This document shows, piece after piece, positions 2,644 through 54,263 of a stretch of DNA of 64,000 nucleotides. Position 1 is the stretch's first letter, and the number at the start of each line of letters is the position of its first letter. The DNA is taken from positions 5,030-69,029 of the forward strand of contig CADAOD010000021.1 of assembly GCA_902789415.1 (NCBI GenBank), given 5' to 3'. The notes under the pieces are model-generated. The model was not told the DNA's origin. It saw nothing but the letters and a program-made list of their open reading frames with translations, and searched no databases. Made by a program: the position numbers and the translations under genes. This DNA is from an uncultured Prevotellaceae bacterium. GTDB taxonomy: Bacteria > Bacteroidota > Bacteroidia > Bacteroidales > Bacteroidaceae.

Positions 2644-3597
2644 ATGGGATTATTTGGATTTTTTAGTAAGGATAAAAAAGAGACGCTCGACAAGGGATTG
2701 GAGAAAACCAAAACGAGCGTGTTCGATAAACTGACTCGTGCCGTAGCCGGTAAGTCGAAGGTTGATGATGATGTATTGGATAATCTTGAAGAGGTGCTTA
2801 TCACCAGCGATGTGGGTGTAGATACCACGCTAAAGATTATTCAGCGCATCGAAGAGCGTGTGGCTCGCGATAAATATGTCAGCACTTCTGAACTTAACCG
2901 CATTCTCCGTGAGGAGATAGCCGAGCTGCTGGCCGAGAATAATTCGGATGATAACGATAATTGGGATTTGCCCACCGATCATAAGCCCTACGTTATCTTA
3001 GTAGTTGGTGTGAACGGAGTGGGTAAAACCACAACCATAGGTAAGTTGGCTTGGCAGTTCAAGCAGGCCGGCAAGAAGGTTTACTTAGGTGCTGCTGATA
3101 CATTCCGTGCAGCTGCTGTTGAGCAGTTGTGTATCTGGGGCGAGCGAGTAGGGGTGCCTGTGATTAAGCAGCAGATGGGTAGCGATCCTGCCAGTGTGGC
3201 ATTTGATACCCTACAGAGTGCCAAGGCCAATGGTGCCGACGTGGTGCTGATTGATACCGCAGGCCGACTGCACAACAAAGTGGGCTTGATGAACGAGCTG
3301 AAGAAGATTAAGGAGGTGATGAAGAAGGTGCTGCCTGAGGCTCCCGACGAGGTGATGCTGGTGCTGGATGGCTCTACCGGTCAGAACGCCTTCGAACAGG
3401 CCAAGCAGTTTGCTGCTGTGACCCAGATTACCTCGCTGGCCATCACCAAGCTTGATGGTACTGCCAAGGGCGGCGTTGTGATTGGTATTTCCGATCAGCT
3501 GAAAGTGCCCGTGAAATATATCGGACTGGGTGAGGGGATGACCGACCTCCAGTTGTTTAATAAACGTCAGTTTGTAGATTCGCTGTTCAATGAGTAA
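2644..3597 (+). CDS. ftsY: SRP receptor FtsY
   Basis: GVNGVGKTTTIGKLA, DTFRAAA, DTAGRL, TKLDGTAKGG. Confidence 0.97.
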   Translation: MGLFGFFSKDKKETLDKGLEKTKTSVFDKLTRAVAGKSKVDDDVLDNLEEVLITSDVGVDTTLKIIQRIEERVARDKYVSTSELNRILREEIAELLAENNSDDNDNWDLPTDHKPYVILVVGVNGVGKTTTIGKLAWQFKQAGKKVYLGAADTFRAAAVEQLCIWGERVGVPVIKQQMGSDPASVAFDTLQSAKANGADVVLIDTAGRLHNKVGLMNELKKIKEVMKKVLPEAPDEVMLVLDGSTGQNAFEQAKQFAAVTQITSLAITKLDGTAKGGVVIGISDQLKVPVKYIGLGEGMTDLQLFNKRQFVDSLFNE

Positions 3598-20610: not shown

Positions 20611-20700
20611 GGAAGGATGGGTGAGTGGCTGAAACCAGCAGTTTGCTAAACTGCCGTACGGGTTCCCGTACCGGGGGTTCGAATCCCCCTCCTTCCGCCA
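20611..20700 (+). tRNA. tRNA-Ser(GCT)
   Basis: Cloverleaf with long variable arm, anticodon loop TT-GCT-AA, GTTCGAATC T-arm, encoded CCA. Confidence 0.95.
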
Positions 20701-20736
20701 AAGGAGATCTCCGAGATTTGTCTTTGACATGCTGTT

Positions 20737-20808
20737 GGTCGATTCATCTAATGGTTAGGATACAAGATTCTCAATCTTGGCATAGGGGTTCGATTCCCCT
20801 ATCGACTA
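20737..20808 (+). tRNA. tRNA-Glu(CTC), copy 1
   Basis: Anticodon stem-loop CAAGA-TT-CTC-AA-TCTTG, GTTCGATTC T-arm. Confidence 0.93.
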
Positions 20809-20899
20809 CAACATCTTTTACATTTTGGTCGATTGAGTTTTCAACTCTATCTCCCTCGCGACTCGGCAATTCAAGTAAACTTGATTGCGCTCGCTGCTC

Positions 20900-20971
20900 G
20901 GTCGATTCATCTAATGGTTAGGATACAAGATTCTCAATCTTGGCATAGGGGTTCGATTCCCCTATCGACTA
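20900..20971 (+). tRNA. tRNA-Glu(CTC), copy 2; integration target
   Basis: Identical to copy 1 over 72 nt; 3' end duplicated at 54504-54518. Confidence 0.93.
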
Positions 20972-22636: not shown

Positions 22637-22695
22637 AATGCAATTTTTCAGCAAGCAGAGCCCTGAAATGCCCATTTTACGGGCTGGAAAAATCG

Positions 22696-22762
22696 TAAAT
22701 GTGTTAAATCAAGACAAAGTTTTGAATTTTTATGGCGGTCAAAAATGTATTTCCGATCTTTG
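22696..22762 (+). promoter_or_regulatory. Conserved 20-bp box plus -7 promoter element (copy 1)
   Basis: TAAATGTGTTAAATCAAGAC 22696-22715; GATCTTTG at 22755. Confidence 0.75.
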
Positions 22763-30218: not shown

Positions 30219-30299
30219 ATTGATGCATAAAAATATGGAATAAGCTTTTTCTCATTCTGCTTTTCTCTTGATTAAGACAATTTAAGACGATGAAATTTC

Positions 30300-30366
30300 T
30301 AAATGTGTTAAATCAAGACAAAGTTTTGAATATTTTATCGCGTGTGTTATATAAAAGATAACTTTG
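30300..30366 (+). promoter_or_regulatory. Conserved box plus -7 promoter element (copy 3)
   Basis: TAAATGTGTTAAATCAAGAC 30300-30319; TAACTTTG at 30359. Confidence 0.75.
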
Positions 30367-42793: not shown

Positions 42794-45562
42794 ATGAAAT
42801 CAGACAAACAAATCGCCAAAGATGCTGCTGAATTTGCAGACCGTTGGCAGGGAGAAGGGTACGAAAAAGGTCAAAGCCAGATGTTTTGGAGTGACCTTCT
42901 GACGAAAGTTTATGGGATAGAAGATCTTACGTCTTTCGTCCGTTTCGAGGAACAGGTGAAGAGTGATATATCAACCACCAACTTCATCGATGTTCGTATT
43001 CCATCAACGAAGGTGTTCATAGAGCAGAAGTCCATCAACAAAGACCTACGTGCTCCCATCAGGCAAAGTGACGGTAATTTCCTGACACCATTTCAGCAGG
43101 TGAAGAGGTATGCCAACGATGTAAGCTATTCACAGCGTCCACGTTGGATAATTACCTGCAATTTCAAAGAGTTCCTGGTCTATGACATGGAACAGCCGAA
43201 CAGCGAGCCAGAAAGTATTTTACTGAAAGACCTCGGTACCGATTATTATCGTCTGAAGTTCCTCGTCGATGAAAAGAGCGAGCATATCAGCAAGGAGATG
43301 GAGGTTTCAATGGCAGCGGGAGAAATTGTAGGACGTATCTACGATGCGCTGCTGAAGCAATATGATGACAATTCACCAGAAGCTCTGCGATGGCTGAATA
43401 TCCTTTGTGTCCGCATTGTGTTCTGTCTGTATGCTGAGGATGCTGGCATCTTCAGCCGAGACCAATTCCATAACTATCTGGCGAAATTTGACGCAGAAGG
43501 AATGCGGCAAGCACTACTGCAGTTATTCCAAACGCTGAACACAAAGGAAGGTAACAGGAGCAAATTCTTACGAGACGACCTGAAAGCATTCCCATATACC
43601 AATGGAGGATTGTTTGCTGCTGAAATCGAGATACCTCAGTTTACGGATGAGCTGCGTAAGGTTTTATTGCATAATGCCAGTCTCGATTTCGATTGGAGCA
43701 AGATATCCCCCACCATCTTTGGAGCCGTTTTTGAATCGACATTGAACCCGGAAACGAGACGTGCAGGAGGTATGCACTACACCAGTATTGAGAATATTCA
43801 TAAAGTCATTGATGCCCTATTCCTGAATACACTCAGGAAGGAGTTCGAGACCATTCTTGAAGAGAAAGTAGAGAAGACCAGGAACAGGCTGCTTGATGCC
43901 TTTCAAGACAAGCTGGCCAGTCTGGTTTTCTTCGATCCCGCTTGTGGCTCCGGCAACTTCCTGACGGAAACATACCTAAGTCTGCGCCGTCTGGAGAATG
44001 ACGTCATTCGTGCCAGATATCACGGACAGGCATTTATTGGTTTTGAAGATAATTCGCCCATCAAGGTAAGTATAAGCCAGTTCTACGGCATAGAGATAAA
44101 CGACTTTGCCGTGACAGTGGCCACCACTGCCCTTTGGATTAGTGAGGCCCAGATGTTGGCTGAGACAGAGAAGATTATTGACTTTAATGATGACTTCCTT
44201 CCACTAAAGACCTACACGAATATTACGGAAGGTAATGCCCTACGCATAGAATGGAAGGATGTAGTTCCTGTAGAGCGACTGTCATATATCATCGGCAATC
44301 CTCCATTTGTTGGCCATCAATGGCGCAATGAGACGCAGCAGGAGGACATGAATCTTGTATTCGCAGATGCAAAGAAACATGGGAAACTTGACTACGTAGC
44401 TTGTTGGTATAAAAAAGCAGCTGATTTAATGCAGAACACACACATCAAATGTGCTTTCGTTTCAACAAACAGTATAACACAAGGTGAAAGTGTGGCGGCA
44501 TTGTGGGAATTGCTTTTTGGGCAGTTTTATGTGGAAATTCAGTTCGCTTATCGAACATTCAACTGGACAAGTGAGGCTTCTCTTAAAGCAGCCGTGCATT
44601 GTGTCATTATAGGTTTTACATGTTACCACGATAAGGAGCAGAAGATTCTTTTTGATAACGACAAGCTATCTTATGTTGAGCATATCAATGGATATCTCTT
44701 AGCGGCTCCCGACATCTTCATTCAGTCAAGAGGGAAACCCCTCAATGCTGATTTACCCATTATGAGCAAAGGAAGTCAGCCAACAGATGGAGGAAATCTG
44801 ATTCTGTCGGTAGAGGAGCGTGAGGAACTAATAAAAGCCTTTCCTGATGCTGAAGTTTTCGTCAAACGTTACATGGGAAGCGATGAGTTTATAAATAACA
44901 AGTATAGATATTGCTTATGGCTAAAGGGGGTCGCACCATCTGATTATAGGAAGATTTCCCCAGTTATGGAACGTTTAAAGAAGGTTGCTGAGACAAGATC
45001 CAAGAGTCCAACGGCATCGGTGAGACGCGATGCAGATATTCCCATGCTATTCACTCAGATTCGACAACCCGAAAGTAATTACCTTGCTGTTCCTGAAGTT
45101 TCTTCACAACGTCGTAGGTATATTCCTATAGGATATATGTCACCAGATGTCATATCGAGTAGTAAACTTATTCTGATTCCCGATGCTTCCATTTACATGT
45201 TTGGCGTGATGACGTCTAATGTTCACATGGCATGGATGCGTGTTGTTTGTGGGCGTTTGAAAAGCGATTATAGCTATTCTCCAGCCGTTTACAACAACTT
45301 CCCATGGCCATCACCCACGGATGAACAGAAAGTAAAGATTGAGCAGACTGCGCAAGCTATACTCGATGCCCGTGCGCTTTATCCGGAAAGCAGTTTGGCA
45401 GATCTCTATGACGAAGTGGCTATGCCACCAGAGCTGCGAAAAGCGCACCAGGCTAACGACCGTGCCGTCATGGAGGCCTATGGATGGAAAGCTGACAGGA
45501 ATTTCACTGAAAGCGTTTGTGTGGCTGAACTATTCAAGCTATACCAGAATTTGGCAAAATGA
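42794..45562 (+). CDS. MmeI-like (Type IIL/IIG) fused restriction endonuclease - N6-adenine methyltransferase
   Basis: N-terminal nuclease (FIDV..VFIEQKS), GMHYT, FDPACGSGNFL, IGNPPF, C-terminal TRD (H.AW.R.VCGRLKSDY.YS...YNNFPWP). Confidence 0.9.
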   Translation: MKSDKQIAKDAAEFADRWQGEGYEKGQSQMFWSDLLTKVYGIEDLTSFVRFEEQVKSDISTTNFIDVRIPSTKVFIEQKSINKDLRAPIRQSDGNFLTPFQQVKRYANDVSYSQRPRWIITCNFKEFLVYDMEQPNSEPESILLKDLGTDYYRLKFLVDEKSEHISKEMEVSMAAGEIVGRIYDALLKQYDDNSPEALRWLNILCVRIVFCLYAEDAGIFSRDQFHNYLAKFDAEGMRQALLQLFQTLNTKEGNRSKFLRDDLKAFPYTNGGLFAAEIEIPQFTDELRKVLLHNASLDFDWSKISPTIFGAVFESTLNPETRRAGGMHYTSIENIHKVIDALFLNTLRKEFETILEEKVEKTRNRLLDAFQDKLASLVFFDPACGSGNFLTETYLSLRRLENDVIRARYHGQAFIGFEDNSPIKVSISQFYGIEINDFAVTVATTALWISEAQMLAETEKIIDFNDDFLPLKTYTNITEGNALRIEWKDVVPVERLSYIIGNPPFVGHQWRNETQQEDMNLVFADAKKHGKLDYVACWYKKAADLMQNTHIKCAFVSTNSITQGESVAALWELLFGQFYVEIQFAYRTFNWTSEASLKAAVHCVIIGFTCYHDKEQKILFDNDKLSYVEHINGYLLAAPDIFIQSRGKPLNADLPIMSKGSQPTDGGNLILSVEEREELIKAFPDAEVFVKRYMGSDEFINNKYRYCLWLKGVAPSDYRKISPVMERLKKVAETRSKSPTASVRRDADIPMLFTQIRQPESNYLAVPEVSSQRRRYIPIGYMSPDVISSSKLILIPDASIYMFGVMTSNVHMAWMRVVCGRLKSDYSYSPAVYNNFPWPSPTDEQKVKIEQTAQAILDARALYPESSLADLYDEVAMPPELRKAHQANDRAVMEAYGWKADRNFTESVCVAELFKLYQNLAK

Positions 45563-45669: not shown

Positions 45670-47631
45670 TCATCTTTTTTTTGTCGTTTTCTGGCTCTGT
45701 GACGAAGATCTGCGAGGTAAGAACATGTTGAACATATTCTGCCACCATCTATACTTGTCATCGCTATCCTTGGGCAGTTCATTATTTTCCCCACCACCGA
45801 CACCCGTACTCTGCATAGCAGAGAGTATCATGCCAAGATATCCCTTCACTACATTATCCCTGACTTCTGAATAGATATTATTTTTGTATGGCGTATACCC
45901 CTCTATCTCGTTAATAAGATGCCGCGACATCAATTCCAGGGTAGGCAGATGTAAGATATCCATTTTTTCTTCATAACCTCGAGCGACTATACCCTTTGCT
46001 ATCCCAATTATATTTTCTTCGAGTATTTCTTTGCGCGAGAAAGGATCCTTGAACATATTCTCAAATATATTTCTTGCATTCTCAATATCATCAAGACACT
46101 TTTCGTGTATTGTCGGCTCGGTCTGTACTGGGGTATGATGATGAGCAGGACGCGTAGAAACCGGCTTCTGAGTGACCATAGGAGTCGGTTTGATAATCTG
46201 CTTCTTTTTCTTTCCCATAGCGACATAATTAGCATATGCTACAGCGGCATCAGCAGTCTTTTCGGCTTCTTTTCTATCACCATTATCATTTTCGTAGATA
46301 GCTTTATCCAACAAATATAAGGCTTTTTCTCTTGCTTCTTCAACCGTCATTTCCAGATCATCAAGGTTAGGTGAATATATACCATTGGTTGAGACATAAT
46401 TTCTATCGCATTCCTCTATAATATACTCTGCTAATTCATAATCCCGAATAGTACTACGATCAAATGGCTCTTCATCGAGATATGCCATTTCGTCATCTGG
46501 TATCTTTTCTGATTGGATGACATCTACTGTATGGGCGGCTTCATTTGAAGATATGACAGTTCCTTTCTCCTGTCCTTTTCTCCATTCTGGATTAAGAAGC
46601 TGCTCCAATGGCATAATATCACTGCCCTTGAATACAATTTTCTTATTATTATCAACTATAGTGTAGCCTTTGACTTCACCGTCCCACTTCGAGAACACTA
46701 CAGACAGTCCGAATTTCGCTTTCAATTCCTCCAGGAACTGCTTAAACTGTGCCTTTCTGATACCCTTGATGTCTTCACCCAAGGCGTTCTGGCCATCGAA
46801 AGCAGCCCCCTTTACACCCTTCTTACTGTCAGTAGCAGTATGCTTTTTCCCCTTCTTTGTCTTCACGACTTCCGGGTCATCCACCAGGTAGTCCATCGAC
46901 CTGCGCCGGTGGTCAAGTATGATACCTTTAAGCTGCTTGATACGATCCTTCTCGTTATCTTTATTCTTGCCTGTTGCTTCTATCTGGTTATTTATTTCTT
47001 CATCGGTAAAGTTAGTAAGAACCTCTTGAGCACGCCTTACGTGTACCACGCCGAGTTCACTATTGTAGTATGACTGACGATATCCTACAGCGCGTAGTAG
47101 ATTAAGAAACTGTTCCCTCGACTCGAACTTATATTTCAGTAGATTCTCCAGCTTATCTTTTTTGTTATACCCTAACAATTTATCGAGTATGCGCCGGGCT
47201 TTTATGCCCTCGCAGTAATTGTCTATCCATTCTCCTGTAGTCTTGTTAACTGTCACCGTGGCACTATGTATATGGTAATGACCAGAGTCAAGATGCCCCC
47301 AGAACACCATTGGTTGTCCTGCATATCCCATATCTTCAAGCACCTTGATCCCCAGTTCCAACAATCGTTGTTTATCCTCTTCTGTCGGCTTTCCGGGCAG
47401 GGAAAACATCGTATGTTTCTGTGGGTGCACTACCTGAGGATTACGGTCGGCTATCTTCTTTAAATACCTACTTAGCACTACCGGAGAATGTATATTATAC
47501 TTCTCCAGCTCACCGAAATTCTTCATTCCGAGGAATATCGCTTTACCCTCTGCTACCTTCTTCTCGTTGTAGAAACAGGCCGCGAAAGTAGTAGCATCAT
47601 TCCCCAATATTTTCACGTTTGCTCTATCCAT
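45670..47631 (-). CDS. MOBP-type relaxase
   Basis: Motif I ACFYNEKKV; motif III VFWGHLDSGHYHIHS. Confidence 0.88.
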   Translation of the reverse strand: MDRANVKILGNDATTFAACFYNEKKVAEGKAIFLGMKNFGELEKYNIHSPVVLSRYLKKIADRNPQVVHPQKHTMFSLPGKPTEEDKQRLLELGIKVLEDMGYAGQPMVFWGHLDSGHYHIHSATVTVNKTTGEWIDNYCEGIKARRILDKLLGYNKKDKLENLLKYKFESREQFLNLLRAVGYRQSYYNSELGVVHVRRAQEVLTNFTDEEINNQIEATGKNKDNEKDRIKQLKGIILDHRRRSMDYLVDDPEVVKTKKGKKHTATDSKKGVKGAAFDGQNALGEDIKGIRKAQFKQFLEELKAKFGLSVVFSKWDGEVKGYTIVDNNKKIVFKGSDIMPLEQLLNPEWRKGQEKGTVISSNEAAHTVDVIQSEKIPDDEMAYLDEEPFDRSTIRDYELAEYIIEECDRNYVSTNGIYSPNLDDLEMTVEEAREKALYLLDKAIYENDNGDRKEAEKTADAAVAYANYVAMGKKKKQIIKPTPMVTQKPVSTRPAHHHTPVQTEPTIHEKCLDDIENARNIFENMFKDPFSRKEILEENIIGIAKGIVARGYEEKMDILHLPTLELMSRHLINEIEGYTPYKNNIYSEVRDNVVKGYLGMILSAMQSTGVGGGENNELPKDSDDKYRWWQNMFNMFLPRRSSSQSQKTTKKR

Positions 47632-47633
47632 TG

Positions 47634-48332
47634 TTACTCCTCTTCTTTATTATATCTACTTTCAAGTTCATCTATTAACAGATAAACAGGCAGCTCGCCA
47701 TAACCATCAACATTCCCACTGATATAGTCCTGTAAAGCTCGTAAAAGTTGTCCTACTTTCACTTTAAAATTTCCTACAGGAGGGAATACCAGGCATCTGG
47801 TAAGCAGCTCATCTTCCTTTAAAAGAATATCCGAAATAGCGTTTTTATCGTTCACTACAGTTTCTTTATATTCCCTTATAAGAGTTCGTATAGATGCCAT
47901 ATTTTCAAGGGTGCCATCCCTGAACTGTAGCAATTCTCGACGTTGTTCTGATACCTCCGTTCCGTTTTCCTCAGCCTTCAACATCAGCAGATTTATCTTC
48001 TTCGCTATCTGGTTGACGTTGTTTCCGAGGCGGTTAATCTCTTCTATTATTCGCCTGAAGTCTGCTTCGAAGGTCGCGAGAACCATACGGTTATCAGCGA
48101 TACATTTTACCAGAGAGTCAGCATCTTTAAGACTCACTCCGACGCCATCATCCATGTGGTTTACTGCGTACCTTATCATATTACTAAGGGAGTATTTGGG
48201 CTTGCCGAAACCGTTCATAGATCTCGCAACCCATTTCCCCTTATCCCTTTCACGAAGGTGTATCTGGTTATCATTTCTCTTCTTTCCAGATACCCTTACC
48301 GGCTTCATTTTTTTGTCTTCCATCATCATCAA
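47634..48332 (-). CDS. MobC-like relaxosome accessory protein
   Basis: EINRLGNNVNQIAKKIN motif; directly upstream of the relaxase. Confidence 0.85.
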   Translation of the reverse strand: MMMMEDKKMKPVRVSGKKRNDNQIHLRERDKGKWVARSMNGFGKPKYSLSNMIRYAVNHMDDGVGVSLKDADSLVKCIADNRMVLATFEADFRRIIEEINRLGNNVNQIAKKINLLMLKAEENGTEVSEQRRELLQFRDGTLENMASIRTLIREYKETVVNDKNAISDILLKEDELLTRCLVFPPVGNFKVKVGQLLRALQDYISGNVDGYGELPVYLLIDELESRYNKEEE

Positions 48333-48365
48333 TATTAAAAAAATGAGTAATACATTATGTTTGAA

Positions 48366-48396
48366 GTGCCCGACTAAGAGGGCACGTTACCCCTGC
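48366..48396 (+). other. Candidate oriT/nic
   Basis: Inverted repeat GTGCCC/GGGCAC followed by TTACCCCTG^C, resembling the MOBP YATCCTG^Y nic; upstream of mobC. Confidence 0.5.
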
Positions 48397-48511
48397 AAGG
48401 GCGGGATGGGAAGGTGTACATAATGGCATCGTTAGAGGCCGTTGTGTACCACCTGCCACTTCCCGCCTACTTCTGGAAATTCTGGCAACGCCGGATTTCC
48501 TTGAAGTACTG

Positions 48512-48660
48512 CAAAGATACGTAGTAGCTTTGTGGTTGCCGAAATTCGGCAAACATTCGTCTTGATTTAACACATTTAAGACGGCGAAAATTCTAAATGA
48601 GTTAAATCAAGACAAAGTATGTGTTTTTTTAGGGTATCTGAAAGATTTTTTCGACCTTCG
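48512..48660. promoter_or_regulatory. Divergent promoters with an inverted pair of the conserved box (copies 4 and 5)
   Basis: Reverse box 48559-48578 with TATCTTTG (minus) at 48519-48512; forward box 48594-48613 with GACCTTCG at 48653. Confidence 0.75.
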
Positions 48661-48727
48661 CAGAAAAGAAAAAACGGGCCGACTGTACGGCCATAATATA
48701 TTAAAGTATAACATAAATATTATAGAC

Positions 48728-49789
48728 ATGGAAGAAATGAAAATAGAGATACCTTGCAATCGTAAGGTTCGCGAGTACACAACTCGCCAGGTGAAAGCTT
48801 TAACTGGCTTGACAGTAAGCCGTGCATACGAGCTGTTGAGAGAGACTGGCAGCTTACCGGTTAACGAGAGTTCCGACGTCATCAAGCGAGGTCGACAACT
48901 CTTGAAGTTGATTAACTCCTTCAAGTTCCCGTCATCAATTCCTGTCCGACCGGTTGATGATCGCCACATGTGGCAGTTCCGGGAGAGATGGGCCAAGTAT
49001 TTACAAGGTCAGCTCGATAAGGTTGTGGGGTCATCGAAGCCAGTTTATCTTGTCGATGAAGTGAACAAACAATTAAAGCGGCGGAAGTCGAACATCACAT
49101 GCATACGCATACATCTTATGTGGTATCTTGATGTGTATGGTGAAGACAATATGACACCAGAAAGTATTGCTACCGCCATCATCAAGTTTGGCGTGAGTGA
49201 CTGGAGTCAAGTACAGCCGCTTGTCAACAATTCAAAGTATAGCCTCGTTCTGGCTGGCGACGTTGACAACATAGACCAGGAAGAGTTTGCGCAGATGGTC
49301 GAGTTCATTTGGTTAGTTCCCAAGCCGAAGATTCAGGATGACTTATTGTCGAAGTTTGAGAATGACATCAAGGTCATGCAAGAATTTTACAAGTTGTGGG
49401 AGTCCTCACCAACGACCTATGACTACAAGAAGATTTTCGAAGAATATGTATGTCGCCTGCAGACTTTACCTCCTTCAAAGAAAAGGGTATCACTGAAGAA
49501 AGAAGTTGATATTGAGTCACGTTCTGGCGTTGAGGAAGACAGAACTGTGACACGTTACAATGAAGTGATAAGTTTTCTCCAGGATCTCACCGGTGGTGAT
49601 TACTTTGCAAAAAAAAGAATAGAGGAACGAGACGAGTCCGTCCGATCTTTCTGCAAACTCTCGAACTTCGACGAGTGTTTTAACGACGTTAAAGCTGCTG
49701 TTACGCACTCTGAAGTACGATATCCAACGACTACCGCGATAGGGCTGATGGAACAGCATGTAAAGAACAATGGGATTATTTTGAAATAG
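48728..49789 (+). CDS. Hypothetical protein, possible N-terminal HTH
   Basis: 353-aa ORF; TRQVKALTGLTVSRAYELL suggests an HTH (weak). Confidence 0.6.
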   Translation: MEEMKIEIPCNRKVREYTTRQVKALTGLTVSRAYELLRETGSLPVNESSDVIKRGRQLLKLINSFKFPSSIPVRPVDDRHMWQFRERWAKYLQGQLDKVVGSSKPVYLVDEVNKQLKRRKSNITCIRIHLMWYLDVYGEDNMTPESIATAIIKFGVSDWSQVQPLVNNSKYSLVLAGDVDNIDQEEFAQMVEFIWLVPKPKIQDDLLSKFENDIKVMQEFYKLWESSPTTYDYKKIFEEYVCRLQTLPPSKKRVSLKKEVDIESRSGVEEDRTVTRYNEVISFLQDLTGGDYFAKKRIEERDESVRSFCKLSNFDECFNDVKAAVTHSEVRYPTTTAIGLMEQHVKNNGIILK

Positions 49790-49804
49790 TTAAAATATGA
49801 TAGT

Positions 49805-50077
49805 ATGGCAGCAAAAGATTATGTAATAGTAACAGGATGGCAGAACGCCTACCTGGCAAAGAAAAAGAAGCCCACCAAGAAAGGGCCACAGACAATGAGT
49901 ATGGATCGCCGTCCCATCACAGAGGGCGAAATGATTGGACTCTTCGAGTTCTACCTTCGCAAATGGTGTGAGGAACACGAGGGTGAAGATACGGTAGTCA
50001 TCTCCAACAGCGACGGTAAGAAGATTTTCGAGGCGACACTGTTGGATAAGGAACCGGAAGCTGGAGAAAATGACTGA
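49805..50077 (+). CDS. Small hypothetical protein
   Basis: 90-aa ORF directly after 48728-49789. Confidence 0.6.
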   Translation: MAAKDYVIVTGWQNAYLAKKKKPTKKGPQTMSMDRRPITEGEMIGLFEFYLRKWCEEHEGEDTVVISNSDGKKIFEATLLDKEPEAGEND

Positions 50078-50191
50078 CGGCAAGCGATAGGCTATCCTTC
50101 TATCATGGCATCATGAGATAACCGATGAAGGCGAGATCAGCCAGTAGTGCAGCACTGGTCACCCAGAGTAGTACTATGTTCAATGTCCTGT

Positions 50192-50485
50192 TCATATCTT
50201 CGACAATTTAAACGGCACGATTCCGAAGGTAGCCATCCTCAGAACTGGAGCCTTGGCTTCCGGGACAAAGTGAATTAACTTGAAGTAAACATCCCGTCCA
50301 TCCTTGCGGTCAGCAGCACAGCAAGGATGGCGGTCATAGACGGCACCTGAGCAAGCACCACCGGTAAGGGTAGCAAAGGCACAGTCCTTGCACCCGTCAC
50401 CGGCAACGGTAATCACCTTTGCACCATCGATCGAGTCTATCCAGACCTCGCCAACTGCACGTTCTTGTCCGTAGTTCGTAATCAT
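50192..50485 (-). CDS. Small Cys-rich hypothetical protein
   Basis: CKDCAF..C..HPCC..RKDGRDVYF, phage-like Cys cluster. Confidence 0.55.
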   Translation of the reverse strand: MITNYGQERAVGEVWIDSIDGAKVITVAGDGCKDCAFATLTGGACSGAVYDRHPCCAADRKDGRDVYFKLIHFVPEAKAPVLRMATFGIVPFKLSKI

Positions 50486-50608
50486 GACTTGCGGGTTTTG
50501 AAGTTTTTCAGATAAACATTCTTGATGAAGGCATTGAAGCCGAAGCAGTAGGTGGCGATAGATGCGCCAACAAGAATAAGTTCAAAATCAGTTAGATGTC
50601 CCATAACA

Positions 50609-50833
50609 CTAATATTCAATTTTAGATGTTGCTACTTCATAAATGCTACTGTCAGCCAGTTTGACGTATTCACGTCCTGCCAGAGCTGCCAGACGGCTCT
50701 GTTGTTCCATACTCTCGTAACCCGTCTCAATCCGTCGCTGCATCTTGTCGATGGCGCGGTCGAGATCTTCCTTTACGCTGTCGAGTGTGCGCTGCACCTC
50801 CTTCAGCTTCTCTATATACTCTTCTGGTGTCAT
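50609..50833 (-). CDS. Small coiled-coil hypothetical protein
   Basis: 74-aa helical ORF. Confidence 0.55.
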   Translation of the reverse strand: MTPEEYIEKLKEVQRTLDSVKEDLDRAIDKMQRRIETGYESMEQQSRLAALAGREYVKLADSSIYEVATSKIEY

Positions 50834-51010
50834 ACTCTCTACGCCTGTTTCTATCCCGTCGGCTGCGGTTTTGGTGAATATTGTTTGTGACGCTGTTGTT
50901 TTGAGTTATCGGCTGAGAGGAGTTTTAGATCTTTCTTCCTTAAATCTTTTCTTACCTGAGTCAGCCGTGTGTTTCAAAATTTTCAGTCGTCATCGACTTC
51001 GTATCGCTTT

Positions 51011-51202
51011 GAGTCTTTTTCCTTGCTGGTATCAAAGTAGCAGACACCAAGGGAACTAAGCCAAGAAATTCTGCGAGAAATTTCGCGGAATACCCAGATT
51101 GTGCGCAATCTGCGGAAGGCTGCCGTGATAATTTCTCCCAGAACGTAGCTTGTTTATTGGTATGGCCCCGGTCTGCACTACCTTTGCAAGGGAAAACGGC
51201 TC
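51011..51202. promoter_or_regulatory. Long fold-back element 1 (candidate ssDNA promoter)
   Basis: Nested complementary arms; TACCTTTG at 51179 pairs with CAAAG-TAG at 51033-51040. Confidence 0.6.
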
Positions 51203-51366
51203 ATCAGAAAGCGATATGAACCTATGAGGTGAAAATAACACACGGACAGGACGAAGGTAAGCCAGAAAAGATTTGCATCACCGCGTAGCGGCTTGCACAG
51301 TTTACTGTGGTTCATGTGTGATACTTCCTGATTCTCTTTGGCGGCAACGCCCCAATCTAAGCCCAC

Positions 51367-51401
51367 AAAAAACTGGAACCTGACATTTGCCAGGCTCCAG
51401 C
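51367..51401 (-). terminator. Terminator after ssb
   Basis: CTGGAGCCTGGCA/TGTCAGGTTCCAG plus T6 on the minus strand. Confidence 0.75.
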
Positions 51402-51423
51402 TGTAGGTTATAGGAAGGAGGCC

Positions 51424-51771
51424 TTACGCCTCCTGAGTCTCTTTCTTCTCAATCTTCTCGATGGCTGTAGCCTTCCAGACGATGGTCTGATGTTCCTTCT
51501 CGTCCTTGCCGACGTACTGGTTGACCTCGAAGAATCCTTCGATCTTGACGAGAGTGCCTTTCTTCAGCAGGTCCAGCTTCGGGCTGTCAGCCTTGGTGCC
51601 TACCTCGATGTTCTGCAGGGCAGAGATCTTCTTCTCGTTGCCGTCCTTGTCCTTCTTGGTGGTACGGATGGAGAGTGGGAACCGTGCGAAAGCACTGCCG
51701 TTGTTGTTCTTTACTACGTTAGCGTCCATTGCTACGAAACCAGTCACTGTGAAATTGTTGTTAGTTGCCAT
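51424..51771 (-). CDS. ssb: Single-stranded DNA-binding protein (start moved to ATG 51771)
   Basis: NNFTVTGFVAMDA..ARFPLS..LLKKGTLVKIEG OB-fold pattern. Confidence 0.8.
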   Translation of the reverse strand: MATNNNFTVTGFVAMDANVVKNNNGSAFARFPLSIRTTKKDKDGNEKKISALQNIEVGTKADSPKLDLLKKGTLVKIEGFFEVNQYVGKDEKEHQTIVWKATAIEKIEKKETQEA

Positions 51772-51839
51772 AATCTTTAATTTTAAAGGGTTTAACTTAT
51801 AATTTTTACGTGCAATACAGAGCCAACAAGAAACAGTCA

Positions 51840-51996
51840 TGCAAAGACAAGGAATTACAAGCAAATTTTGCGGAATACCCCATTTTCTTTAGGCGTGCCG
51901 TTAAGAAGAAAATGCGGAAGGCTGCTGGAAAATTTGAGCAGGAATAAGGAGCCGTGCGACTGGTACTTGACGAATGACGCTTGGGCTACCTTTGCA
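51840..51996. promoter_or_regulatory. Long fold-back element 2 (candidate ssDNA promoter for ssb)
   Basis: Shares GCGGAATACCC, CGGAAGGCTGC and CTACCTTTGCAA with element 1; TGCAAAG/CTTTGCA arms. Confidence 0.55.
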
Positions 51997-52913
51997 AAGG
52001 AAAAATATGAGTGCAGACCCGCCCAGAAAAGGAAAGAGGCAACCCATAACAACAATCAGTGACGCATCACAGCATAATGGATGCAGTAGGCCCATGAAGA
52101 ACACCAGGCATCCGTAGTGAGGTTTCCCCGTCAGTACGACCAACGAACCAAGGACAGGAAGAATCAGCAACAAAGAAGAGCACAGTCCGCTATCAGGAAC
52201 GTCCACCATGCCTGACGGCGCTGGAACAGAGAAAGAAGAAAAGCTGTCAAGTTCCAAAGGATGAGTCAAACAACAAGGCGAGAGTGACAATTAGAGAGGA
52301 ACACCTTTGTCTGCAAGGCAGCAACATGATTGAGAGCCGAAGGAAGAGAGTACCAGAGGTTAGGGATTCATCCCGTCGTGGAAGCCGGATAGAAATGTCT
52401 GGTTGAGTTTTTCCATGGTGAAGTAATAAAAGCGTCCTGTTCACTATTATATCTTCAGGACGTTCATGTCATTCTCTGGCGAACCAGCAGGGAGCCTGTC
52501 AGCGTTCGGCGGCAACCAAGCAGGCACACGTACAGCTGATGGTGGTTCTCCAAGCTCCATGAGCTGCCGAGAATGAACAGCAGCCGTGCATGATGCCTGT
52601 GCCAAGCGCGGACGGATGCCGACAAGTGACCAGTGCCGAGAGTGAGAACATGACATATAGTTATTATTTGTCAGATATGAGCAAATAATTATTGTATTAA
52701 ATACAGAAAGGTAATATCGTTTTTGTCGTGCGAGCTTTACGAGGTAAACAAGATTTCATGTAAACCTTATCCACATATGCTAATGTTTACATTGAAAACA
52801 CATAAACATTTATTCATTGTACGCATATTTAATATGTACGCACGTGTACATATTATATTTAGTTTACATGGTTACATGTCAATAAGTTGTTGTTGTTTAC
52901 ATATGGGGAACTT

Positions 52914-54263
52914 CTATTGCTTGTCAAACAATAACATTGCATCCTCTTTAGCCTTGTCAGCTATTTCAATGTATGGTTTCATGGCCGAATAATCGCTGTG
53001 TCCTGTCCATTTCATCACTATCTGAGGGGCGATGCCAAGCATCAGAGCGTTACAGATGAAGGTTCTACGTCCTGCATGAGTGGACATCAGCTGATACTTA
53101 GCATAGACTTCGTCTACACGTTGGCTGCCACGATAATAAGTGACAGGAATAGCCTCGTTAAAGCCAACAATCTCAGCCATCTCCTTCAGATAGTCATTCA
53201 TTCGCTGGTTGCTGATAACAGGAAGGACCTTATCATACGGAAAATTATCCTTTCGGTATTTGTTCAAGATAGCTTTGGCATACTTGTTCAATTCGATCTT
53301 CAAGGAGTCACCGGTTTTTACGGTCGTTATTTGAATATAGCCAGGGAAAAGATTGCTTCGCTTTAGGTTTTCGACGTCAGAATAACGTAAAGAAGTGAAA
53401 CAGCAGAAGCAGAACACATCCCTAACACGTTCAAGAGTGGACTTTTCAAGCCCCACACGCTTCTCGTATTCATATCCGTGGACATCGACAAGGGTCAGCT
53501 TCGTTCCGACGTCAGGAAAGCTAAATTCATAGAGCTTCATCAGTTCGTCCCAATCCAGGAAGACGATAGGTTTCTTAGTCTTCTGAAGTTTTGGCCTAAA
53601 ATTGGCCTTTATGGACGTGTAACCTTTATTTTCTGCCCACCGGATGAAGTATCGCAGACGGCTTGTGTATTTTTCAATCGTAGAATTACGTAGAAACTTT
53701 ACCTCACGAAGAAAATCTACAAAGTACGTAGTTCCATCTTCGTTAAAATAATCGATGGAGGTTACATGTTTATAGTCAAAGAAATCAGTCATGTGCTTCT
53801 GGAACGACTTCATACTTTTGCTCGTTGCCAAACGCCAGCTATTTTTGTCTTTCTGTTCTTCCAAGAAATCTGACAACCGTTTTCTGATGTCATCTGGTAG
53901 TTCTTCTTTCTCTTCAGTTGTTTCTACCTTCTGCTTTTTGAAGTTCTCGTTATAGATGCTTTTCAGGTCACCCACAGTCTGACCATTTCTCCGTAGTTCG
54001 TCCTCATATTCACTAAAAAAGCTATCTATACGTTTCAACTTACTGTTTAACTCGCGGGCAGTAAGAGAACCTATCATCACTGGTTTACCAGCGTATGAAA
54101 GTAGAATTCTCTGAGTGTCCTGATTCCAGTACTCAGGTTTTATAGAGAAACCTGCAGTCGTGGTGAGGCGCTTGCCTTGAATACAGATAGCACATCTCAC
54201 TGTAACGTCGCCATCTCCACGCTTCTTCTCTCTGGTTTTATCTAAGAAAAATCTGACTGACAT
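52914..54263 (-). CDS. Tyrosine integrase
   Basis: Arm-binding N-terminus; SLRYSD, TVKT, HAGRRTF, WTGHS..MKPY catalytic R-K-H-R-H-Y. Confidence 0.95.
   Translation of the reverse strand: MSVRFFLDKTREKKRGDGDVTVRCAICIQGKRLTTTAGFSIKPEYWNQDTQRILLSYAGKPVMIGSLTARELNSKLKRIDSFFSEYEDELRRNGQTVGDLKSIYNENFKKQKVETTEEKEELPDDIRKRLSDFLEEQKDKNSWRLATSKSMKSFQKHMTDFFDYKHVTSIDYFNEDGTTYFVDFLREVKFLRNSTIEKYTSRLRYFIRWAENKGYTSIKANFRPKLQKTKKPIVFLDWDELMKLYEFSFPDVGTKLTLVDVHGYEYEKRVGLEKSTLERVRDVFCFCCFTSLRYSDVENLKRSNLFPGYIQITTVKTGDSLKIELNKYAKAILNKYRKDNFPYDKVLPVISNQRMNDYLKEMAEIVGFNEAIPVTYYRGSQRVDEVYAKYQLMSTHAGRRTFICNALMLGIAPQIVMKWTGHSDYSAMKPYIEIADKAKEDAMLLFDKQ

Follow-up and report, generated by a model that had tools for sequence, protein, structure and literature searches.

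The window analysed here, a stretch of 64,000 nucleotides (nt) from an uncultured Prevotellaceae bacterium (contig CADAOD010000021.1, positions 5,030 to 69,029), holds two long fold-back sequences, referred to as element 1 and element 2, which are located on either side of an ssb gene close to the right-hand boundary of a ~33-kb inserted element (Table 1). Both carry, on the plus strand and in the 3' arm of the fold, a candidate promoter for sigmaA, the housekeeping sigma factor of Bacteroidota. As the initial annotation had reasoned, a box in this arm reads into the genes of the minus strand once the DNA is folded, and this orientation logic is geometrically correct. The comparative analysis described below indicates that the two elements belong to a widespread and strand-specific family, and suggests that they probably act as single-strand promoters of the transferred strand of a mobilizable element, similar to the Frpo promoters of plasmid F.

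Table 1. Features of the window and of distantly related loci; positions are those of the window, except for the last row, where the locus is given before the colon.
Feature	Position	Strand	Remarks
Element 1, full fold-back rod	50979-51240	+	~260 nt
Element 1, -33 TTG	51157-51159	+	paired with CAA of ACCAA (51046-51050)
Element 1, -7 box TACCTTTG	51179-51186	+	
Element 1, apical domain	51078-51134	+	AAATTT, GGAATACCC, covarying tip hairpin, GGAAGGCTGC, AATTT; blocks invariant
Element 2, diverged paralogue of element 1	51765-52042	+	directly upstream of ssb; 5' base overlaps ssb start codon
Element 2, -33 TTG	51967-51969	+	spacer 17
Element 2, -7 box TACCTTTG	51987-51994	+	
Element 2, apical domain with long tip hairpin	51863-51936	+	consensus fold of 32 element-2-type copies; compensatory tip changes
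ssb	51424-51774	-	PF00436; nearest gene downstream of folded element 2
Intrinsic terminator after ssb	51371-51402	-	14-bp stem and T run
orf74	50609-50833	-	first gene downstream of element 1; conserved family, 10 loci
orf97	50192-50485	-	Cys-rich, 96-97 amino acids; commonest cargo of element-1-type hairpins, 33 loci
oriT-like region	48360-48470	+	inverted repeat GTGCCC (48366-71)/GGGCAC (48380-85), then GTTACCCCTG/C
MobC-like accessory gene	47634-48332	-	PF05713; same orientation as ssb
MobA/VirD2-type relaxase	45670-47631	-	PF03432; same orientation as ssb
MmeI-like type IIL restriction-modification gene	42794-45562		complete, within the inserted element, adjoins relaxase
Tyrosine integrase	52914-54263	-	PF17293, PF00589, PF13102; right end of the inserted element
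Inserted element, ~33 kb			tRNA cluster (20611-20971) on one side, tyrosine integrase on the other
Hairpins upstream of distant ssb genes	L129:1040-1235, L270:3858-4133, L272:1261-1497 and 3306-3537, L273:2270-2547	-	TTG-N19-TAnnTTTG in the 3' arm, opposite ssb

As single-stranded DNA, element 1 was predicted to fold with a free energy of -53.2 kcal/mol (z -6.8), a value that was reached by 0/200 dinucleotide shuffles. All seven pairings that had been listed for it initially are present in the minimum-free-energy fold, and the extent given at that time, 51011-51202, is real but represents only the inner part of the rod, which has TTTTTCCTTGC/GCAAGGGAAAA as its base stem. The predicted transcription start (+1) is position 51191 on the non-template arm, with C51021 on the 5' arm as the template base, and lies 188 nt before the ATG of orf74. 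A mini-hairpin, CAGTCGTCATCGAC (50984-50998), is nearly invariant at the 5' base of element-1-type rods, within the predicted 5' leader of orf74; a reading of this 5' flank as the C-terminus of a peptide was ruled out by variants with an in-frame stop, seen by eye in the alignment.

Element 2 has the exact blocks GCGGAATACCC, TGCGGAAGGCTGC and CTACCTTTGCAA in common with element 1. Over 51763-52042 its fold was marginal, with a free energy of -34 kcal/mol (z -1.7) and 11/200 shuffles as good, and over the earlier coordinates, 51840-51996, it was no better than that of shuffles (z -0.78). Both the shared cores and the AAATTTT/AAAATTT stem proposed for element 2 were confirmed, and this stem is conserved; by contrast, the pairing of TGCAAAG (at 51840) with CTTTGCA, which is possible in the window copy, was rejected as a conserved register, since homologues vary there without compensation. 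The conserved base stem is formed by TTTTTACGTGCAA (51803-51815) and TTGCAAAGGAAAAA (51992-52005), the counterpart of TTTTTCCTTGC/GCAAGGGAAAA, and its register recurs in distant relatives with compensatory changes. For the non-template arm, +1 is predicted at 51999; its template base would be at about 51810 (51809-51811), ~35 nt before the ATG of ssb. Element-2-like DNA was 84-94% identical in loci whose SSB proteins share only 74-77% identity. The 870 nt that separate element 2 from the integrase gene (52043-52913), onto which the element 2 promoter would read in duplex DNA, contain no convincing open reading frames (ORFs). High-depth DNA contigs from three runs join 51919 to 51986 with an anchor of 21 nt, omitting the 66 nt between GGAAGG and the -7 box, a joint that probably stems from another family member or from a k-mer artefact.

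A strand-specific family of fold-backs

Homologues of the SSB protein led to loci with an element-2-like sequence upstream of ssb and an element-1-like sequence downstream of it. The search pattern AAATTTNNNGGAATACCC-N12-42-GGAAGGCTGC matched at least 119 metagenomic contigs and 2 'viral' contigs, which yielded at least 106 distinct instances; the family counts given in the following are those among the matches listed, from rumen and gut metagenomes. Two subtypes could be distinguished by their apical hairpin, which is short in 70 copies, as it is in element 1, and long in 32 copies, as it is in element 2. A looser pattern with 18 specified bases returned 120 matches on genome contigs, all of which were due to chance. 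A covariance model, R1, was used as a sequence profile, since it holds almost no structure because RNAalifold finds the rod only in part on MAFFT alignments, in which indels misalign the middle. A profile search of the window recovered only elements 1 and 2, while in 100 related loci 124 copies were found by profile; these were co-oriented in 25/25 loci with two or three copies, and the -7 box was kept in 11 of 13 diverged copies.

Across the family the median z of folding was -5.7, and 99% of the copies folded more than 2 standard deviations better than their mononucleotide shuffles. Covariation among homologues, which had been named at the outset as a check of the hairpins, was found in the form of co-evolving arms. 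When 69 element-1-type copies were aligned, four helices were paired in 94.5% of the cases, compared to 82.6% with shuffled partners (0/500 as high), and pairing dropped to 48-55% when the partners were slid by 1-3 columns. Compensatory double changes were present in 16 of the 27 pairs and amounted to 208 cells, compared to 55 expected. The middle stems, which MAFFT misaligns, compensate by eye as well (ATTTCAC/GTGAAAT versus ATTCTG/CAGAA). An alignment-free swap of arms among 34 diverged representatives resulted in a mean of -46.3 kcal/mol for native arms and -33.3 kcal/mol (standard deviation 5.3) for chimeras. Of the 34 5' arms, 19 folded best with their native partner, and almost all of these were of the element 1 type, the swap being uninformative for element-2-type copies, which are too similar to one another.

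The fold also distinguishes between the two DNA strands. The box-bearing strand was more stable than its reverse complement in 99/102 copies (median 4.9 kcal/mol), and in the covarying helices G.T pairs outnumbered A.C mismatches by 153:25, which argues that one specific strand folds; these cells are phylogenetically non-independent, which deprives a nominal p-value of its meaning, although the bias has a clear direction. Both strand biases rule out a symmetric signal in duplex DNA and a minus-sense RNA. These observations make it very probable that the functional form is folded single-stranded DNA of the box-bearing strand.

The promoter signature within the fold

A TAnnTTTG box was found 45-75 nt 3' of the apical core in 106/106 copies, with TA and TTTG invariant and the two positions in between free (CC 71, AC 17, AA 14, AT 2, CA 1, GT 1). 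A TTG is located 17-20 nt upstream of the box in 39/39 dereplicated representatives, at a distance of 19 nt in 22 of them. The -7 consensus of Bacteroidota sigmaA is TAnnTTTG at -12 to -5 (PMC9723704, PMC4747536), and the family motif, with a TTG ~19 nt upstream of TAnnTTTG, agrees with what defines promoters for this sigma factor. In line with such a promoter grammar of the host, the window contains 64 matches to TAnnTTTG compared to 42 expected (0/100 shuffles reach 64), many of which sit just upstream of genes. The two TACCTTTG boxes at 51179 and 51987, pointed out in the initial annotation, proved to be real. No other TAnnTTTG match is found in 48533-53269 on either of the strands, and on the minus strand none is present between 48512 and 54363.

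The predicted ensembles give a pairing probability of ~0.85 for the -33 TTG, which is part of a conserved CTTGG/CCAAG stem, of 0.38-0.58 for AnnTTT of the -7 box, and of 0.95-0.99 for the stretch from the final G to +2, across the predicted +1. The complement of the box, CAAAnnTA, occurs on the 5' arm in 0/102 copies; thus the -7 box is never fully paired, and no mirror promoter faces the genes in duplex DNA. Judging from general sigma-factor mechanics, a duplex -33 element, a pre-opened -7 element and a duplex past +1 are what the polymerase would need on folded single-stranded DNA in order to start without melting.

Covarying structure and RNA contigs over element 2 could also be expected of a structured RNA, either a plus-sense non-coding RNA or a 5' leader of the minus-strand mRNAs. 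However, a minus-sense RNA would have C.A in place of G.T and be less stable in 99/102 copies, a plus-sense RNA over element 1 has no promoter upstream, and neither would account for an invariant TA..TTTG with free nn, a spaced TTG and a box that is never paired. Searches of Rfam 15 returned only tRNAs at the gathering threshold and nothing credible at E<=5 over 50400-52900, and a structured RNA at this locus is scarcely credible.

A second alternative takes the elements as ordinary duplex promoters for plus-sense RNAs, antisense to ssb in the case of element 1 and directed towards the 3' end of the integrase gene in the case of element 2, with the palindromy serving some other purpose. It draws on the -33 and -7 elements, which are intact in duplex DNA, on a weak terminator-like site on the plus strand at 51416-51434, on genes located downstream in that direction in two loci of the comparison (L270 and L139), and on RNA-library contigs at 52157-52438. 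On the other hand, the compensated complementarity of the arms, which extends ~45 nt past +1 and throughout the upstream region, is needless for a duplex promoter, the G.T bias indicates one folded strand, ORFs in the duplex direction were found in only 41/95 copies and at scattered distances, and most ssb lineages are without a divergent gene. Ordinary duplex promoters are therefore quite unlikely to be the explanation.

Downstream genes, orientation and carrier element

On the opposite strand, an ORF starts just past the 5' base of the rod in 75/93 copies, at distances that cluster at ~17-19 nt for the ssb type and ~150-178 nt for the element 1 type, and ssb was the first antisense gene in 20 element-2-type loci. 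Since ssb has a strong terminator of its own, element 1 would head a separate unit consisting of orf74, orf97 and any following genes. The orf97 product, which has C32, C35, C45, H53 and C55 as invariant residues, may bind a metal, and none of its 61 homologues carries a name. The earlier labelling of these small ORFs as anti-defence candidates is unsupported: orf74 and orf97, as well as two plus-strand ORFs between oriT and the hairpins, had no matches in Pfam and NCBIfam, and an AlphaFold model of orf97 (23 homologues) was unusable at a predicted local distance difference test score (pLDDT) of 47.

A similar arrangement was found at distantly related ssb genes of Bacteroidota elements, whose products are 42-60% identical to P0081 and ~45% identical to the SSB of the window, and some of which adjoin PcfK/PcfJ. 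Seven loci from four lineages had enough upstream sequence (L129/L268, L270, L272 twice, and L273/L274), and in all seven exactly one opposite-strand TAnnTTTG is located 158-204 nt upstream of ssb, with no such box on the ssb strand within 420 nt. These boxes lie in the 3' arm of long hairpins (z -3.9 to -6.8; for L129, z -6.07 with dinucleotide shuffles) with TA(nn) unpaired. The hairpins of L129 and L270 have no apical motif in common with the window family, and in those of L272 and L273 only GAATAC...GGAAG is retained. Within the window itself, an opposite-strand box is present within 300 nt upstream of 9/50 genes, and exclusively on that strand for 4/50, so that the narrow and repeated placement of the box upstream of ssb does not represent background.

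The recurrence with ssb bears on a third alternative, in which the hairpins are single-strand origins (sso) only, recruiting RNA polymerase, or primase via the apical loop, to prime the complementary strand, with gene expression being incidental. Sso elements are known to act through a folded promoter (PMC4595007). The hairpins described here are likewise orientation- and strand-specific, their carrier has its own DnaB-like helicase and relaxase, and the invariant apical loop could be a priming signal. Yet the promoter is directed not towards the loop but outward, into genes whose distances are fixed (~17-19 and ~150-178 nt), the two or three copies per element each head their own transcription unit with a terminator in between, and the association with ssb recurs in unrelated hairpin lineages. 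A function in priming alone is thus unlikely; sso-like priming is compatible with gene expression and may coexist with it, as in Frpo.

Orientation was uniform throughout the family. Hairpins and their genes (ssb, orf97-like and orf74-like) were on opposite strands in 151/151 pairs, and the relaxase gene was opposite to the hairpin strand in 33/33 cases and on the 5' side of the hairpin, at a distance of 1.8-6.5 kb, in 31/33. This geometry was the same for two unrelated relaxase families, PF03432 and PF01076. The consistency is relevant to invertons captured in their OFF state, which among the look-alikes in Bacteroides have to be taken most seriously; on this view a site-specific recombinase, for which the adjacent integrase is a candidate, would use the two arms as its inverted repeats. 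As in Bacteroides invertons, TAnnTTTG lies between inverted repeats and faces away from the gene, which is the classic layout of one of their two states, and a tyrosine recombinase gene is located 1 kb from element 2. However, the inverted orientation was found in 0/151 hairpin-gene pairs from >100 metagenomic loci, and the contigs of four DNA runs, in which rare variants could be missed, contained neither strand-changing joints nor inverted contigs. Unlike invertons, the elements are palindromic throughout, and neither the covariation of the interior helices nor the strand-biased wobble (G.T:A.C 153:25) is expected of recombinase repeats. Moreover, they also occur in a plasmid-like locus, L138, with no recombinase within 6 kb, and a role as invertons is very unlikely.

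The position of the hairpins relative to the mobilization genes suggests which strand would be transferred. The oriT-like region is intergenic, upstream of the mob operon, with CCCCTG/C after the inverted repeat, and 48360-48470 is 96% identical in two related loci (L240/L166), the flanks being ~79% identical. As a rule, the nicked strand of MOBP and MOBQ systems carries the repeat 5' of nic, and the relaxase gene is the last to enter. Applied to the inverted repeat and the position of the relaxase gene, these rules suggest a putative nic at 48395/48396 and the plus strand as the strand that would be transferred from near 48396, the hairpins entering after 2.6-3.4 kb, in agreement with the initial annotation. 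The hairpins are always found on the far side of oriT from the relaxase. A palindrome of ~60 nt, TTCGTCTTGATTTAACACATTTA ... TAAATGAGTTAAATCAAGACAAA, at 48556-48616 has further copies at 30266-30324 and 22689-22735, i.e. three in the inserted element, and turns up in numerous related loci as well; it may serve as an operator or as a terminator acting in both directions.

Among the genes of the inserted element, none could be recognised as belonging to a type IV secretion system, and on gene content we read it as an integrative, plasmid-like element that is mobilizable rather than self-conjugative. In addition to the genes in Table 1, its cargo includes a DnaB-like helicase, a ParA-like ATPase and DUF3853. 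A prephenate dehydratase gene adjoins the integrase end. At the presumed left boundary, two identical tRNA genes (20737-20808 and 20900-20971) are located 163 nt apart beside a third tRNA gene, and past 21 kb the GC content falls from ~0.50 to 0.38-0.44. The public runs that contain the sequence are bovine and sheep gut metagenomes.

A proposed single-strand promoter and its known counterparts

Weighing this evidence, we assign a probability of about 65% to the reading that elements 1 and 2 are Frpo-like single-strand promoters of the transferred strand, suited to the housekeeping sigma factor of Bacteroidota. The plus strand would become single-stranded on entry into the recipient after nicking at the oriT-like region, or during relaxase-driven rolling-circle replication, and would fold into rods of ~260 nt. 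The 3' arm would then represent the non-template strand of a TTG-N17-20-TAnnTTTG promoter, in which the -33 element is double-stranded (CTTGG/CCAAG), the -7 box falls within a mismatch or bulge that is already open, and base pairing is regained across +1. RNA polymerase would start without melting, copy the 5' arm together with its flank and leave the rod at its base, to produce ssb mRNA from element 2 and orf74-orf97 mRNA from element 1; the same RNA may additionally prime complementary-strand synthesis. Once the DNA has been turned into duplex, the promoters would no longer face ssb and the orf74 genes. In this scheme we infer both the recognition by RNA polymerase and its timing. A Bacteroidota version of the Frpo/ssi hairpins was already the proposal of the initial annotation, and it is now backed by a co-evolving and strand-specific hairpin, a full promoter, fixed distances to genes, co-orientation with the relaxase and independent lineages, while its anti-defence label is unsupported.

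A more far-reaching variant, in which the elements form a promoter module that is common to Bacteroidota mobile elements in general, senses whether the DNA is single- or double-stranded and switches its direction accordingly, appears doubtful. Here the folded incoming strand would fire leftward into ssb and establishment genes, whereas the duplex would fire rightward, giving RNA that is antisense to ssb and convergent with int and that would shut off the early programme. The apical loop (AATA/AAGGCTG) would serve as a dedicated docking site for a protein, encoded by the host or by the element, that either initiates folding or brings in polymerase or primase.

Several points weigh against elements 1 and 2 being single-strand promoters. 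The promoter is intact in duplex DNA and should fire the opposite way there, which the model leaves unexplained, and the invariant apical internal loop (AATA/AAGGCTG) has no role in it. Element 2 by itself is thermodynamically not significant, and its lower stem shows no covariation, because the element-2-type copies are too alike. The nic and the identity of the transferred strand are deduced from the oriT-like repeat and the rule that the relaxase gene enters last. Finally, an RNA contig spans all of element 2 (51801-52045) in some runs, unlike a transcript that starts inside the hairpin. The metatranscriptome and metagenome runs consist of unstranded contigs, from which neither start sites nor rare inversions can be read. 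They contain ssb RNA, and in the one clearly rRNA-depleted run, unlike those with the spanning contig, the ssb contigs stop near the start codon and leave the 3' arm uncovered. The spanning contig suggests read-through from the integrase promoter or carry-over of DNA, and the metatranscriptome contigs are uninformative either way on a single-strand promoter.

Several known systems share parts of this architecture. The minus-strand origin of the filamentous phages f1/M13 is a hairpin of single-stranded DNA that mimics a promoter, with the upstream element paired and the downstream element partly unpaired. The window hairpins resemble it in this respect, but the f1/M13 origin is phage-borne, makes a primer only and depends on sigma70. 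Likewise, ssoA, ssoT and ssoU of rolling-circle plasmids and sso1 of ICEBs1 are orientation-specific, folded single-stranded DNAs that are recognised as promoters by the host RNA polymerase (PMC4595007); they give rise to a short primer, which in the ssoA type ends at a conserved motif of the loop (CS-6), and are not placed for gene expression, in contrast to the elements described here, which face outward into genes with one unit per copy. The closest counterparts are Frpo1 and Frpo2 of plasmid F and the ssi/single-stranded promoter of ColIb-P9 (Masai and Arai, 1997; Nasim, 2004; Couturier, 2023, PMC9849209; Samuel, 2024, PMC11541004), in which a long imperfect hairpin of one strand restores a housekeeping promoter directed past the stem base into leading-region genes, as proposed here for the window elements. 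In plasmid F, Frpo is present twice, with one copy located upstream of ssb (PMC9849209), and similarly the window holds a diverged pair a few kb from the oriT-like region, of which element 2 directly precedes ssb. As in the leading region of F, ssb, small genes, oriT and mob genes follow in this order and are all co-oriented. In contrast to these similarities, the window elements share no sequence similarity with Frpo, carry a TTG/TAnnTTTG promoter rather than -35/-10, and have a conserved apical domain with an invariant internal loop. Their carriers are integrative mobilizable elements with relaxases of the MobA/VirD2 type or Mob_Pre.

A blastn search with 50978-52042 of the 72,556 plasmids in PLSDB gave no match, although F and IncI plasmids are included, and our literature searches found no single-strand promoter from Bacteroidota. 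The survey by Samuel et al. sought such promoters by similarity to Frpo and by the -35/-10 (sigma70) consensus, and does not mention Bacteroidota (PMC11541004). As judged from the sequences compared, the family is real, widespread and strand-specific, embeds a Bacteroidota sigmaA promoter in Frpo-type geometry and is undescribed in the sources searched.

Single-strand promoters explain how plasmids express protective genes before their DNA has become double-stranded, and to our knowledge experimental examples have so far come only from enterobacterial plasmids. Bacteroidota are dominant in gut and rumen, exchange DNA intensely and use a different promoter grammar, so that searches based on similarity to Frpo or on sigma70 promoters would miss their elements. 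The sequence rule that emerges from the present analysis, TTG-N19-TAnnTTTG in the 3' arm of a rod with -33 paired and -7 unpaired, could be used to identify, directly from the sequence of a Bacteroidota element, its leading region and the strand that is transferred. It could likewise flag the genes that are expressed first, such as ssb, the widespread Cys-rich protein of 96 amino acids and other small proteins, and the hairpin itself may become a part for recipient-only, transient expression in Bacteroides genetics.

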